A stretch of 63,969 nucleotides of DNA, the filler included, from Octopus bimaculoides (taxonomy: Eukaryota): NCBI RefSeq assembly GCF_001194135.2. It is 6 parts of 5 records of this genome, joined end to end, with 100 filler letters (N's around TTAATTAATTAA, not from the genome) between each part and the next. Parts side by side here need not be neighbours in the genome. Positions count along the whole stretch, not along the records: positions 1 to 14,090 come from NC_068996.1; positions 14,191 to 43,652 come from NC_068999.1; positions 43,753 to 50,847 come from NC_068983.1; positions 50,948 to 58,815 come from NC_068981.1; 2 more parts are not named here. One strand, written 5' to 3'. Positions within the stretch are counted from its first letter, which is position 1. Each line of letters starts with the position of its first letter. The notes under the pieces were generated by a model. It was not told the DNA's origin. It made no database searches and saw only the letters and a program-made list of their open reading frames with translations. This document shows positions 2,320 to 56,098 of this stretch, piece after piece. A program made the position numbers and the translations under genes.

Positions 2320-2366
2320 ATATCTGATGAGATGGAAGTGTACATCAACGAAACTTTAAGTCATGT
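2320..2366 (+). ncRNA. Degenerate minimal type-I hammerhead ribozyme motif
   Basis: atat-CTGATGA-gatg gaagtgta catc aac-GAAA-CTTTAAG-TC-atgt; GUC site; helix II has a 3-nt bulge. Confidence 0.55.
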
Positions 2367-2451
2367 GGTGCTGAGTTAAATTGCTACAAATTACACGCAA
2401 AACCAATCATGCTGCTTTCTTTCCACTTCTTATTCACACATACATATCTAT

Positions 2452-2466
2452 CTATCTATTTATCTG

Positions 2467-2521
<55 letters not shown>

Positions 2522-2584
2522 GTCTATCTGTCTGTCTATCTGTCTATATATCTATCTATCGCTTTCTCTCTCTCTCTCTCACTC

Positions 2585-2619
<35 letters not shown>
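2452..2619 (+). repeat. (TCTA)n/(TC)n microsatellite
   Basis: Direct inspection. Confidence 0.95.
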
Positions 2620-2711
2620 NNNNNNNNNNNNNNNNNNNNNNNNNNNNNNNNNNNNNNNNNNNNNNNNNNNNNNNNNNNNNNNNNNNNNNNNNNNNNNNNN
2701 NNNNNNNNNNN

Positions 2712-2748
<37 letters not shown>

Positions 2749-2753
<5 letters not shown>

Positions 2754-3380
2754 AGAATTCACAAAAAAGAAACAACAACAGACGAAGACAGGTGGTGTAG
2801 AAAACAAATAGATGCATTAGTATAACGCTTGGGAATTAAGGAAGTCTTTAACGTTTCGAGCCTACGCTCTTTTACAGAAAGGAACAAGGAGAGAAACAAA
2901 ATACATATATATATATATTTATATATATATGCATATATACATACATATATGTACATACCTACATATATATGTATATATATACATGCATATATGGGTACAG
3001 GACGTCAAAAAAACTTGAACAAAATCATAAACGAGAACATAAAACACGAAGTTTTTTTCGAACAACGAAAGAAGCAAATAGAGAAACGAGACAGGCAGCA
3101 TAAAGAACAATCCCTTCATCGGTTGTCCACTGTTTTATCTACTCCGCATTTCGAAGGTTGGGACAAGATGCGACTTCGTTAAAATAGTCCTTCCCGCAAA
3201 GCAAATTAAATAAAATTTGGGATTTTTGCGGAGGGTTAAAGTGGTAACAAAAACAGGACAGTGAGAATAAAACAGTAAAAACAAACGGTGAGGGCTGTTA
3301 AGCCATAACGAGGTAAAGTGGTGAACGCTGGAGGAAGGAGCTATTACACGACACAGGCAAAAGTAGATCTTATCTCTTGT
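2749..3380. mobile_element. Probable Penelope-related non-autonomous repeat with a hammerhead-derived remnant (2847-2881, minus strand)
   Basis: Minus strand reads cttt-CTGTAAAA-GAGC gtag GCTC-GAAA-CG-TT-aaag, i.e. a mutated first core; family assignment is inference. Confidence 0.35.
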
Positions 3381-53129: not shown

Positions 53130-53295
53130 AAGCGGCGAGCTGGTGGAAACGTTAGCACGCCGGGAGAAATGCTTAGCAGTATTTCGACTGTCTTTACGTT
53201 CTGAGTTCAAATTCCGCCGAGGTCGACTTTGCCTTTCATCCTTACTGGGTCGATAAATTAAGTACCAGCTGCCTTGTGCCTAGAGTAGAAAAGAA
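53130..53295 (+). mobile_element. SINE family B
   Basis: GCGGCGAGCTGGTGGAAACGTTAGCACGCCGGG... Confidence 0.9.
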
Positions 53296-54260
53296 TATAA
53301 TAATATAAACGATATCAATTCTATTAAATAAGATAAGCACTGACCTGAACTTTAAAAGAGCACTAAATTTCTCAGGAATGCCATTAAAATTTCAGTTGTT
53401 AATTTGTTCATACTTTTGGGATTGACTATCGTCGCCAACTTCTATTCGAGGCGTGACACCTTCCTAAGTTGCTCATTAGTTCAAATAACCTATGCCTCTA
53501 GCGCTAAGTGACTGTTAAGTTAACTGATAATCTGTGAGAAATTTTGTGGAGATTGAATAGTATAGTTCAATAGCAGATTAATATTTAAAATACTTAGCTA
53601 ATTTGGTGCTAACACTTTTAATACAAGAACTCTAAAAAGCTAACTTGAAGTAGTTATGAAGCGTCGTAAAAGAAAGAAATTAGTTAATGTCTGATACTAT
53701 TTTGATTACACTCAGAATATGTTTCGGTCTCATTAATAAGCATAGACTTTATCATACTTAACGAAATATTGATGCGAGAATCACTATTGTATATTGGTTG
53801 ATGCAGGGAAATAGAACTGTTTATACAATAATCCGTGGAGGGCATCCACACACACACAAAAAAGAATAAAAAGCAATAGTTAAGGTAATTTGAATACATT
53901 TAAATGAGTAAACAGTTAAAATTTAACTAGAAATAATTATATGATGACGAAAAAATAACGTTAATCATTTTTATAATTCATTTATACGAAAACTTAATGT
54001 TTTAATTCTTTCATGCAGAAGTATGGGAAACAATTTTGGAGAAGTTCTGAAAGCTCATTTTATTGCGATTGTAAAACAATATTCTGATTAACAATGCATA
54101 CATGTGCAATGCATTGTTATAGTATAGGAGAAACATCGGTGAGGAGACTAGAAGGGCTCTCCATCAGTGAAGAGAGAGGGAGGGAGAAGGGGAAGACAGA
54201 GAGAGAAGGGGAAGACAGAGGGAGAAGGGGCAAGATATTTTTACTGAAAGTATAGTATAT

Positions 54261-54668
54261 AAGCGTGGCTGTATGATAAGAAGCTTGCTTCCAAACTACA
54301 TGGTTCCAGGTTCAGTCTCACTGCGTGGCACCTTGGGAAAATGTCTTCTATAGCCTCGGGCCGACCAAAGCCTTGTGAGTGGATTTGTAGACGGAAACTG
54401 AAAGAATCCCGTCGTATGTATATACATATATGTATATATCTATGAGTGTGTATCTGTGTACCTGCATCTGTCTCCCCATCACTGCTTGACAGCCGTTGTC
54501 GGTGTATTTACCTCCCGTAACTTAGCAGTTCGACAAAAGAGACCGGTAGAATAAGTACTAGGCTTAAAAAATAAGCCCTCGGGTCGATTTGTTTGACTAA
54601 AATCCTTCAAGGTTGTGCTGCAGCATGGCTGCAGCCAAATGACTGAAACAAGTAAAAGAATAAAAGAA
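54261..54668 (+). mobile_element. SINE family A, full length
   Basis: Head, core, internal microsatellite and tail all present. Confidence 0.9.
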
Positions 54669-54856
54669 CATAAGCTATAAGAAGATGATTTAGTGAACAC
54701 TTTATGAACAGATGCCTTTCTCCCACCTCGCGATGTTATTCAGTAGTTTCCATTCGTATGTTTGAAAAGTTAGGTAGCTAGTTTTAAGAAATGGTAATTC
54801 ATTGCAAACATCTACTTTGGTATTATGACTTTTATTAGCTGCTTATTATTTACTAT

Positions 54857-55170
54857 TGTGGAGGCGCAATGGCCCAGTGGTTAGGGCATCGGACTCGCGG
54901 TCATAGGATCGCGGTTTCGATTCCCAGACCGGGTGTTGTGAGTGTTTATTGAGCGAAAACACCTAAAAGCTCCACGAGGCTCCGGCAGGGGATGGTGGCG
55001 AACCCTGCTGTACTCTTTCACCATAACTTTCTCTCACTCTTTCTTCCTGTTTTTTCAAGGGGTCAGCCTTGTCACATTGTGTCACGCTGAATATCCCCGA
55101 GGACTACGTTAAGGGTACACGTGTCTGTGGAGTGCTCAACCACTTGCACGTTAATTTCTCTAGCAGGCTA
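54857..55170 (+). mobile_element. SINE family C, 3'-truncated
   Basis: TGTGGAGGCGCAATGGCCCAGTGGTTAGGG...GCACGTTAATTTC. Confidence 0.9.
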
Positions 55171-55460
55171 TCATCAGCTCTCAGTCAGGTGCCTTCCTTG
55201 TGTTCAGGGGTCGGCTTGCCAAAATTCTCCAGTTCCTTCTTCGCTGTGCTGCATGCACACGATCAACTAAGCTTTTGTTTCCGGTCCAATCTTTGATGTC
55301 ATCAATTCACAAACGTATTTGACGACCTCTTGCAGTTTTCCCTTCCACACTTCTTTTGGAGGATGTTCTTAGGCAATGAATCGTGGCACGTTGTATGTTC
55401 AAAGTATAAGAGATTTATGGACTTGATTTTCGACAGCAGGTGTATTTGGACTTTTAGATT
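55170..55460 (-). pseudogene. RTE-clade LINE 3' end
   Basis: LLSKIKS..LLYFEH..HDSLPKNILQ..VEGKTARGRQ..IDDIKDWTG. Confidence 0.75.
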
Positions 55461-55649
55461 TTTTTAATATTGCAGCGTTTGTTACCTTGTTTTTCTAGCT
55501 TATTTTGTGCAATTCAAGAAAGAGCCACACTTCAAGGGTATCTATTTTGTTTTCCATTGCTCTGTACATTGTCCATGTTTCCAACTAGCGAGGCTTGTAC
55601 ACCACAGAGAGCTCATCACCTCTTTAGAAAAGGCTGGTTCAGAAAGTAA

Positions 55650-55810
55650 GGACATCAAAATCATTTATTTATCACATTGGAACTAAATGGCAGCCATCAA
55701 AATAAACCAAGATTTCTCAGTACCAGCAGAGATCAAAAGAGGTGTAAGACAAGGATGTATATTATGGACATATTTATTTAATATCTAAACTGGGTTTATA
55801 TCCAGAGAAT
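55650..55810 (+). pseudogene. RTE-type RT domain 4 fragment
   Basis: MAAIKINQDFSVPAEIKRGVRQGCILWTYLFNI. Confidence 0.75.
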
Positions 55811-56052
55811 CAAATGATATCAAATGACTCATATTCAATGGCATAAATATAAATAATATATGATAATTATTAGCGATAGAAGTAGTGTGAATACCAAAAG
55901 GTAATCTTTATATCCATCTTAACATTGATGCCGTGTTAGAATACCACATACTGCGTTATTAGTCTTGAGAGATCCTCTCATTTAGGCGCTTGTCGCATAA
56001 CGGCACAACATCGGTCGTAGTAGACGAAAATCGTCTATCACGGGCGCCGGAA

Positions 56053-56098
56053 TTCCCATACCACGTGATATCGGTCTATTGGACTTCATCAGTTGGAA
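56053..56098 (-). ncRNA. Degenerate minimal type-I hammerhead motif
   Basis: ttccaa-CTGATGA-a gtc caata gac c-GATA-TCACGTGG-TA-tgggaa; CACGTG palindrome; GAAA mutated to GATA. Confidence 0.55.

Follow-up and report, generated by a model that had tools for sequence, protein, structure and literature searches.

What kind of element has strewn hammerhead ribozyme motifs through the genome of Octopus bimaculoides, and what do the palindromes signify that most of them carry in helix III? We addressed these questions in a window of 63,969 nucleotides (the whole stretch of DNA analysed, whose parts are joined by N gaps), where a preliminary description had located nine such motifs. All nine are present, and four more were added, giving 13 hammerhead motifs in 11 insertions of about eight repeat families (Table 1). 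Very probably, these 13 type I motifs lie in short non-coding insertions representing end-pieces of Penelope-like elements together with the retrozymes that those elements likely mobilise, the palindrome being a matter of pairing symmetry.

Detection of the motifs and the question of chance

In a scored scan of the window, the nine sites of the preliminary description, named by the outer end of helix I, occupied ranks 1-9 among 277 candidate cores. The score was devised after the sites were known, so the test is post hoc. As controls, 300 dinucleotide-preserving shuffles of the window in 300-base blocks were used, and the observed counts were far above them: 10 sites against a shuffle mean of 0.48 (maximum 4) at a score of at least 15, 7 against 0.06 (maximum 2) at a score of at least 20, and, with the palindrome term omitted, 8 against 0.35 (maximum 3) at a score of at least 16. 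The best score per shuffle had a median of 14.2 and a 95th percentile of 20.1. The two weakest of the nine, 2320 (16.6) and 56053 (15.8), fall inside this range and are not significant alone, and the individual scores of the added motifs 11213, 11353, 18281 and 61109 also lie inside it. Positions 48977, 27411 and 12388 yielded three further candidates of score 12-14, which were excluded, being inside the shuffled range and without relatives.

Most motifs of the window are worn. While the preliminary description held that three of its nine depart from the hammerhead form, more of them do, as a strict descriptor accepts 43798 and 47761 alone. The core is free of mismatches in 8 of the 13 motifs if U4C is allowed (two motifs carry this change in an otherwise intact core) and in 6 if U4 is required, the other five having one mismatch each; furthermore, the foot of helix II has a mismatch or an extra base in 7556, 8721, 9269, 9784 and 56053. 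Motif density is one per 4.3 kb on relaxed and one per 28 kb on strict terms. An Rfam scan of the window gave no match at the gathering score, and at E<=10 no hammerhead was among the best 150 of 313 matches. Nearly all of these 150 weak matches were microRNA models lying on microsatellites and fold-backs.

That the motifs are mere random matches in AT-rich repetitive DNA is scarcely conceivable, even though the score is post hoc, Rfam is silent at its gathering score and six sites (2320, 56053, 11213, 11353, 18281 and 61109) do not individually exceed the shuffles. Seven sites of at least 20, where 0.06 are expected, speak against it, and so do the inserts. Among hits picked without the palindrome term (score of at least 10, insert of at least 5 nt), at most one insert position was unpaired in 8/13 window hits versus 38/856 shuffled hits; the helix III inserts are thus palindromic or nearly so, as had been described, and are enriched without having been selected for it. 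Moreover, reads aligned at 9784 restore a perfect palindrome, and the weak and added sites, other than 2320, recur in relatives: 56053, for instance, is backed by its own inverted-repeat element and by a relative at 61109. The chance reading is refuted for the set as a whole and could hold for 2320 only, which has no such backing and is the least supported of the original nine.

Table 1. Hammerhead motifs and the insertions around them, by position in the window (core, position of C3; cut, predicted last base before cleavage)
Positions	Strand	Core	Helix III insert	Cut	Feature
2320..2366	+	2324	CTTTAAG	C2362	type I hammerhead; helix I 4 bp, bulged helix II
7556..7644	+	7563	CGGTCG	A7637	hammerhead; helix I 7 bp, helix II region 56 nt
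8646..9391	.				one fold-back insertion; 305-nt arms 90% complementary, with motifs 8721 and 9269 on opposite strands; left end adjoins N gap
8721..8768	-	8764	CAGTTG		hammerhead; U4C core (CCGAUGA), helix I 3 bp
9269..9316	+	9273	CAGCTG		mirror copy of 8721 motif; core G5 to A
9614..10074	-				1.3-unit insertion; 107-nt partial copy (10074-9968), then 354-nt unit (9967-9614) ending in (TA)n
9784..9828	-	9822	CACGGG	C9790	hammerhead; helix I 6 bp plus outer helix 8 bp
11143..11510	.				fold-back insertion with motifs 11213 and 11353; left arm cut by N gap; family of 18137-18390
11177..11216	-		GAAC		11213 motif, added; hammerhead, G8 to A; insert 4 nt, non-palindromic
11350..11388	+		GAAT		11353 motif, added; hammerhead, core intact, helix I 3 bp
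18137..18390	-				254-nt insertion; inverted copy of last 45 nt plus direct copy with hammerhead; adjoins (TA)n
18245..18284	-		GAAT		18281 motif, added; hammerhead, G12 to A
43346..43403	+	43352	CGTCG		hammerhead; helix I 6-7 bp, bulged helix II
43753..44003	+				relative of 9784 unit, 74% identical over 254 nt; 5' side cut by N gap; ends in (TA)n
43798..43842	+	43804	TCCGGA	C43836	best-formed hammerhead; U4C core, helix I 6 bp, helix II 4 bp
47672..47852	.				fold-back; inverted 3' half-motif (47672-47755, minus strand) joined to full 47761 motif
47761..47844	+	47765	CATATG	A47840	hammerhead; core intact, helix I 4 bp, helix II region 57 nt
55904..56357	-				insertion; inverted copy of last 145 nt plus direct copy with 56053 motif
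56053..56098	-	56092	TCACGTGG		worn hammerhead; GATA replaces GAAA, helix I mismatch; insert 8 nt
60951..61512	-				insertion; inverted copy of ~90 nt, one-sided tail of ~25 nt; distant relative of 56053 element
61070..61114	-		TCACGTGT		61109 motif, added; worn hammerhead, G8 to A; insert 8 nt

Insertions, repeat families and a 354-nt unit

When 3' flanks were compared pairwise against shuffles, 2 of the 45 pairs were clearly related, namely 9784/43798 (z 38.6) and 56053/61109 (z 7.3), and a third, 9784/47761, was borderline (z 3.3, 2/200 shuffles). Beyond these, the 45 pairs held no common 3'-flank signal among unrelated families, and the comparison found no relative of 43346 within the window. 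Motifs 11213, 11353 and 18281 constitute one family. The earlier count of about seven families for the nine motifs holds, as 8721 and 9269 belong to one fold-back and 9784 and 43798 are relatives.

In most insertions, an inverted truncated copy (6/11) or a partial tandem (1/11) adjoins the motif; neither was seen in 4/11, one of which is cut by a gap, and no such partner was found for 2320, 7556 or 43346. N gaps cut three insertions in all. TA-rich ends occur at 9614, 18137 and 44003. A flanking direct repeat together with a one-sided tail was present in one of the seven insertions examined, 60951..61512, where the repeat of 14-16 nt lies at 60951 and 61497, and a like combination arose in 1 of 300 control windows.

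With regard to coding capacity, 588 open frames of at least 45 aa were reduced to 482 by complexity filtering, and Pfam detected no reverse transcriptase or GIY-YIG domain in the 450 of these that were searched; 13 frames matched, all below curated cut-offs and none to a retroelement. Since the frames searched hold no such match, none of the motifs can be linked to a Penelope ORF in the window, and the insertions are stubs or non-autonomous units rather than autonomous elements, which would carry reverse transcriptase plus GIY-YIG. Positions 2200-2319, the candidate end of a Penelope endonuclease ORF, gave no match in short motif searches of the PMC8557442 supplement.

The family of 9784 and 43798 stands out. 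Judged by its sequence, it is a high-copy, non-LTR retrozyme of ~350 bases, arranged head to tail and seen in RNA reads. Its unit comprises 354 nt with 43.8% G+C, has no Pfam match, and, folded as a circle, scores z -2.6 with none of 100 shuffles equally stable; the 43798 motif has a long outer helix beyond helix I and a fold z of -5.9. Both copies break off in (TA)n at one shared place in the unit, which lies 167-176 nt past the predicted cut. Of 21 homologous pairs in their helices, 6 differ on both sides, 1 is broken and the remaining 14 are unchanged, with registers set by eye.

Reads and contigs were aligned to 9622-10130 only, and RNA runs were chosen by species label. This yielded 3931 aligned contigs in X2 and, from another organism, X14, 3069 more. 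Contig depth collapses beyond 10080, joints in the DNA contigs go back 322-351 bases, and loose ends in RNA at 9633 (79 and 80 reads) and 9625 (30 reads) link the 3' end of the unit to its 5' start, junction reads that are compatible alike with genomic tandems and with circles. Aligned RNA records numbered 741 of 12.9 million and 490 of 11.5 million; they were about equal on both strands, so that passive transcription may account for them. No pile-up of read ends was found at the cut predicted for 9784, though the window copy used for alignment is diverged and the library is one of ordinary cDNA. Hardly any aligned read shows the A at 9796; C (79/85 and 29/34 RNA reads) or T (~80% of DNA contig depth) stands there instead. 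In a metagenome collection, a 20-base motif of the family gave two chance matches, in GC-rich contigs of bacterial type, and none in viral contigs.

Helix III palindromes and the pairing of copies

Helix III is palindromic in 7/8 families. The exception is the family of 11213, 11353 and 18281, in which 4/6 positions pair in all three copies. Monomer helix III hairpins were computed to be unstable in 11/11 copies (+1.7 to +5.6 kcal/mol) and homodimer duplexes favourable in 10/11 (-1.5 to -11.7 kcal/mol); the CGGTCG of 7556 is fully paired as a homodimer, two G-U pairs included. The palindromic helix III points to folding of the dimer type, and the motifs are of a published kind that likely cuts on pairing of two adjacent copies. 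In an intact family, RNA of head-to-tail copies would likely fold into a double hammerhead, in which the palindromes of two successive units pair as helix III and helix I, too, forms between the units. A cut after position 17 would then release RNA of unit length, which for the 9784/43798 family means ~350 nt. Circularised by a host ligase, this RNA would be copied into (TA)n targets by reverse transcriptase and endonuclease of the Penelope type, with inverted truncated copies and partial tandems left behind. On this view, the palindrome would supply the symmetry by which two like copies pair, and it would drift through G-U intermediates. Cleavage, dimer use, circles and the Penelope helper we infer from the literature, and likewise the Penelope origin of the seven families other than 9784/43798. 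Against this cycle speak the mismatched cores and the U4C change, which lowers hammerhead activity in vitro, and a preprint that reports cleavage in only 1/9 dimers tested (Li et al. 2026, 10.64898/2026.07.22.740005).

Alternatively, inserts of 6-8 nt could form a short helix III capped by a tetraloop and the motifs could cut as monomers in the cell, the palindromes being largely ancestral symmetry. Monomer cleavage is indeed known from invertebrate retrozymes whose stem consists of two pairs and a tetraloop (coral ~0.8/min, mussel ~0.1/min), so that a dimer may not be required, and in 9784 and 43798 a monomer could gain stability from the long extensions of helix I. We nevertheless regard this as unlikely, given that the loop positions stay palindromic across variants (CCCGGG, CTCGAG, TCCGGA), for which a monomer stem would have no need, that the computed monomer helix III is unstable, and that in axolotl, whose motifs have a comparable stem, cleavage is much better in the dimeric form.

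The preliminary description went further and suggested that family-specific palindromes could act as a pairing code, with dimeric cleavage confined to members of one family. Under such a code, selection would have driven the palindromes of families or subfamilies apart, leaving trans-activation to like RNAs alone. Several observations fit such a code: each of the eight families has a different insert, CACGTG is common to the related copies 56053 and 61109, and for most copies the self duplex beats the cross duplex (9269, -11.1 versus -4.0 kcal/mol with its best unrelated partner; 47761, -7.0 versus -3.2). Even within the 9784/43798 family, subfamilies change helix I and palindrome together, CACACG going with CCCGGG and CGAACG with TCCGGA, and one loose-end consensus combines CTCGAG with a third helix I.

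However, this same family speaks against the idea, for it has several palindromes: TCCGGA in the window, CCCGGG in RNA reads with C at 9796, and both CTCGAG and CTCGGG in mixed loose-end consensuses. Of these, CTCGGG pairs 8/8 with both CCCGGG and CTCGAG, and CCCGGG pairs 7/8 with TCCGGA (-8.8 kcal/mol). Varying thus within one family, the helix III palindrome is unlikely to be a family password. Distinct palindromes, besides, mismatch by default; only 16 C-N4-G words exist, and none of their 120 pairs is fully compatible. Helix I, which from geometry would also form between the partners of a strand-swapped dimer, is already family-specific, forming 3-7 uninterrupted pairs inside a single copy (1 in the worn 56053) versus 0-4 across families, although the four pairs between the 11353 family and 61109 exceed the 11353 family's own three. 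Furthermore, published dimers join tandem copies on one transcript, where the partner is of the same family anyway, and the 11213/11353/18281 family does without a palindrome. A selected code therefore appears very improbable and without support, while incidental incompatibility between families is likely.

It would be a bolder step, and one that we doubt, to rank this genome among the densest hammerhead complements known and to suppose that 350-nt retrozyme subfamilies have co-diverged in helix I and palindrome until mutually inactive. If true, the density of the window would imply an order of 100,000 or more motifs over ~2 billion bases, and competing retrozyme lineages would be isolated at the RNA level, the CCCGGG type prevailing among the expressed copies. 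Matched and mismatched palindromes occur together in the 9784/43798 family, a ready-made series in which homo- and heterodimer cleavage would be easy to compare; for such a comparison we found no published test in a search that lay outside Lünse et al. 2016, the main study of cleavage by dimers.

Comparison with Penelope hammerheads and retrozymes

As to hammerheads or retrozymes in octopus or cephalopods, Craig et al. 2021 was the sole relevant paper found in the literature searched, in which a genome-wide hammerhead census of octopus may be unreported. The claim that the motifs belong to several retroelement families is upheld, and their sequences place them in a kind already published (PMC4209133, PMC3088659 and PMC6765202), namely Penelope-type hammerheads with palindromic helix III. 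Down to the additional base that follows A9, they agree with the metazoan Penelope hammerhead consensus 'CUGANGAH G...C GAAAN Palind NU H' (Cervera and de la Peña 2014, PMC4209133). With the hammerheads of Penelope pLTRs they share the core, the type I layout and the palindromic 15.2-16.2 region (PMC4209133; Lünse et al. 2016, as cited in PMC6765202 and PMC6466107), many divergent families per genome with mostly solitary copies, which is the published norm for Penelope-type hammerheads, and close opposite-strand pairs 100-700 bp apart (PMC4209133). Unlike those hammerheads, no Penelope ORF was found beside any window motif, the inserts are longer (4-8 nt) and two families have U4C cores. The relaxed density of the window also looks above that implied by the published 2,000-9,000 per genome.

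The insertions, for their part, resemble endonuclease-bearing Penelope insertions, as described by Craig et al. 2021 (PMC8557442), in 5' truncation, partial tandems, inverted truncated copies and perhaps, judging from one insertion and from the TA-rich ends, in a one-sided tail and microsatellite targets, but they differ from them in being short (180-750 bp) and non-coding, and their sole tail measures ~25 nt instead of 30-40. Lastly, the 9784/43798 family is like the metazoan non-LTR retrozymes, whose units in mussel measure 350-390 bp (Cervera and de la Peña 2020, PMC7229834), with its 354-nt non-coding unit of 44% G+C, one type I hammerhead, head-to-tail junction, high copy number, RNA reads and predicted self-paired fold. 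It thereby combines the features by which such retrozymes are recognised, a head-to-tail unit of 150-450 bp that is non-coding, multi-copy and under 50% G+C, a likeness that covers one of the eight families and is known here from sequence and reads. Animal retrozymes have in turn been linked to Penelope pLTRs in the preprint of Li et al., and the octopus would be one more animal genome crowded with Penelope-type hammerheads and retrozymes.

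Motifs in the window and their background

All nine hammerhead motifs of the preliminary description are present, its coordinates marking where helix I ends on its outer side. Only 43798 and 47761 passed a strict descriptor, which demands a helix I of 4 bp or more, an unbulged helix II of 3 bp or more and two helix III pairs. In a scored scan tolerating one core mismatch and bulges, whose scoring was written post hoc with the sites known, the nine took ranks 1-9 among 277 candidates. In the comparison with 300 local dinucleotide shuffles, window motifs far outnumbered shuffled ones: 10 sites scored at least 15 (shuffle mean 0.48, maximum 4) and 7 at least 20 (mean 0.06, maximum 2), and with the palindrome term removed 8 scored at least 16 (mean 0.35, maximum 3). 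For the best shuffled score the median was 14.2 and the 95th percentile 20.1; neither 2320 (16.6) nor 56053 (15.8) is therefore significant by itself. Palindromes were enriched although the hits had not been selected for them: of the 13 hits whose insert has at least 5 nt, 8 leave no more than one position unpaired, as do 38 of 856 in the shuffles. An Rfam search of the window gave zero matches at gathering score. The hammerhead cluster in the window is real and dense.

The seven families suggested for the nine motifs were borne out: 8721 and 9269 occupy opposite arms of a single fold-back of 746 bases, 9784 and 43798 share 74% identity across 254 bases, and 45 pairwise comparisons of 3' flanks gave two clearly related pairs and one borderline. 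Four further motifs were found, namely 11213(-), 11353(+) and 18281(-), which form one family, and 61109(-), distantly related to 56053 (62% over 98 nt, z 7.3). The window thus totals 13 motifs, 11 insertions and 8 families, or one motif in every 4.3 kb once N are excluded (one in every 28 kb with the strict descriptor). Since the window was chosen for richness, genome-wide extrapolation of this density is unsafe.

The animal DNA of the window is AT-rich (~36% G+C outside gaps) and microsatellite-rich, and its 29 gaps total 8064 N, several being patterned 44-N/12-base/44-N. The assembly is a short-read scaffold, in which a fold-back end adjoining a gap may reflect truncation or misassembly. 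Pfam searches with 450 of the window's 482 open frames (at least 45 aa, complexity-filtered) detected no protein-coding remnant; sub-threshold matches in 13 of the searched frames were not retroelement-related. The broken frames upstream of 2320 may represent the final part of a Penelope endonuclease domain, and the 93-nt unit may resemble octopus SINE tails.

Anatomy of the insertions

Six insertions combine a direct copy with a truncated, inverted copy of the 3' part (table). The one at about 60967 carries a one-sided tail of ~25 nt and, at its flanks, a direct repeat of 14-16 nt, the like of which occurred in 1 of 300 control windows; neither was found in the other six of seven insertions examined. 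No inverted or tandem partner was seen at 2320, 7556 and 43346, and the 43798 copy is cut at its 5' side by a gap. Because the arm motifs of a fold-back lie on opposite strands, they would be unable to dimerise on one transcript, and read-through RNA of such insertions would fold to a long hairpin.

Repeats, insertions and partial motifs by window position
Feature	Position	Strand	Detail
93-nt unit	1-568		6.1 tandem copies; matches tail of dispersed SINE-like repeat
Dispersed SINE-like repeat	10320-10382, 53006-53096, 54578-54667, 57245-57329		tail matched by 93-nt unit
Broken reading frames	2200-2319	+	end just upstream of 2320 motif
MITE-like fold-back	7925-8215		291 nt, 132-nt arms, 94% complementary; no hammerhead found
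Dispersed repeat family	37192-37553, 45893-46274, 54857-55169		no hammerhead match
Dispersed repeat family	13765-13927, 41018-41336, 53122-53279, 60323-60527		no hammerhead match
Dispersed repeat family	998-1148, 5860-6016, 52836-52943, 54263-54417, 57605-57761		no hammerhead match
Direct + inverted copy	8646-9391
Direct + inverted copy	11143-11510
Direct + inverted copy	18137-18390
Direct + inverted copy	47672-47852
Direct + inverted copy	55904-56357
Direct + inverted copy	about 60967-61496
Partial tandem	9614-10074		107-nt partial copy, then 354-nt unit
Half-motif	47695	-	additional to the 13 motifs
U4C core	8764, 9273, 43804	-, +, +	two unrelated families

The 350-nt family in DNA and RNA reads

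Reads were aligned at likeness 80 to the 9784 insertion, a member of the 350-nt repeat family shared with 43798. In DNA, 3931 contigs aligned in sequencing run X2 (organism A) and 3069 in X14 (organism C), contigs in most DNA runs with matching sequence totalling about 2.1-2.4 billion letters. Depth collapses beyond 10080, so the entire 1.3 units are repetitive; among the 15 of 68 joints listed, DNA joints reach back 322-351 bases. From a single study, two RNA runs yielded 741 matches in 12.9 million records and 490 in 11.5 million, mostly less than 95% alike and about equally on both strands, and hence derived from other copies and perhaps passive transcripts. RNA loose ends join a 43798-type 3' end (9633; 79 and 80 reads) or a 9784-type end (9625; 30 reads) to the unit's 5' start, which makes the head-to-tail junction family-wide. 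Those at 9711 (244 and 190 reads), where no palindrome was read, match the 43798 flank, and this type is therefore well represented in RNA. No pile-up of molecule starts or ends was seen along the 9784 insertion.

The family has 43.8% G+C, and its circular fold beats 100 of 100 shuffles in stability (z -2.6). With registers set by eye, the two window copies differ at both bases in 6 of 21 homologous pairs and are identical in 14, while one pair is broken, by an A at 9796 that aligned reads almost never show. Both copies end at the same unit point, at 9614 and 44003, into (TA)n and 167-176 nt past the predicted cut (n=2); a fixed priming site is possible from these two ends.

Helix III, cleavage and relation to known hammerheads

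Helix III of the monomer is computed to be unstable in 11 of 11 copies and the homodimer duplex favourable in 10 of 11. In the most likely cycle, drawn from published systems, tandem units would be transcribed, double hammerheads would cleave between neighbouring units, the released unit would be ligated to a circle, and a Penelope-type enzyme would copy it into (TA)n. Cleavage as monomers is a live alternative, as single coral and mussel units are reported to cleave (PMC7229834). With core mismatches in 5 of 13 motifs and U4C in two more, otherwise intact, most copies in the window probably have little or no activity; U4C is described as a natural variant of reduced activity in vitro (PMC3088659), and a 2026 preprint (10.64898/2026.07.22.740005) reports cleavage in one of nine dimers tested. 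The U4C cores are followed by A-GGG...CCC in helix II.

The preliminary description proposed that the palindromes could act as a family-specific code permitting dimer cleavage within families only. Most copies are indeed computed to form stronger duplexes with themselves than with others, and helix I and palindrome change jointly between subfamilies; however, the 350-nt family carries several palindromes. On the hammerhead strand, position 9796 is C in most RNA reads (79 of 85 and 29 of 34) and T in ~80% of DNA contig depth (both X2 and X14); the mix of subfamilies may differ between RNA and genome, the runs coming from different individuals. If its other five letters are as in the window (9793 is not among the 40 of 168 variants listed), the RNA word at 9784 is CCCGGG. 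Loose-end consensuses of mixed sequences read CTCGAG (X21, 54 reads, agreement 0.59) and CTCGGG (X14, 35 contigs, agreement 0.72), and TCCGGA is the word at 43798 in the window, giving the family at least two, probably four, words. CCCGGG and TCCGGA form 7 of 8 pairs, and CTCGGG forms all 8 of 8 with CCCGGG as well as with CTCGAG, and is thus a neutral route between them through G-U pairs. None of the three copies of the 11213 family has a palindrome. Two different palindromes mismatch anyway: none of 120 pairs among the 16 C-N4-G palindromes is fully compatible. Families can therefore mismatch without selection, and 16 words are too few to label many families. In a strand-swapped type I dimer, helix I would, to judge from the geometry, also form between partners; its contiguous pairs number 3-7 inside one copy (1 in 56053, which is worn) and 0-4 between families. 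Incidental incompatibility between families is therefore likely, and a selected code is unsupported. A literature search for heterodimer or family-specific cleavage tests found no paper.

The window hammerheads belong to an already known kind. The motif formula of the preliminary description is identical to the consensus that Cervera and de la Peña 2014 give in their supplement (PMC4209133). Their main text describes a palindromic helix III, cleavage as dimers, genomes with many families each, and motifs paired at short distance on opposite strands; Perreault et al. (PMC3088659) list palindromic stem III with a dimer model, and both are restated in reviews (PMC6765202, PMC6466107). Published counts stand at ~2,000 minimal motifs for Schistosoma mansoni, 4,000 for coelacanth and 9,000 for Xenopus tropicalis (PMC4209133), over 6000 in 16 families for a coral and about 5000 for a mussel (PMC7229834), and 126,247 for axolotl. 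Penelope-like elements are described with 5' truncation, partial tandems, inverted copies, microsatellite targets and a one-sided tail of 30-40 bp (Craig et al., PMC8557442), compared with ~25 nt in the window, and the 2026 preprint (Li et al.) ties vertebrate retrozymes to Penelope pLTRs. With its G+C content and stable circular fold, the 350-nt family fits the non-LTR retrozymes reported in PMC7229834 by Cervera and de la Peña.
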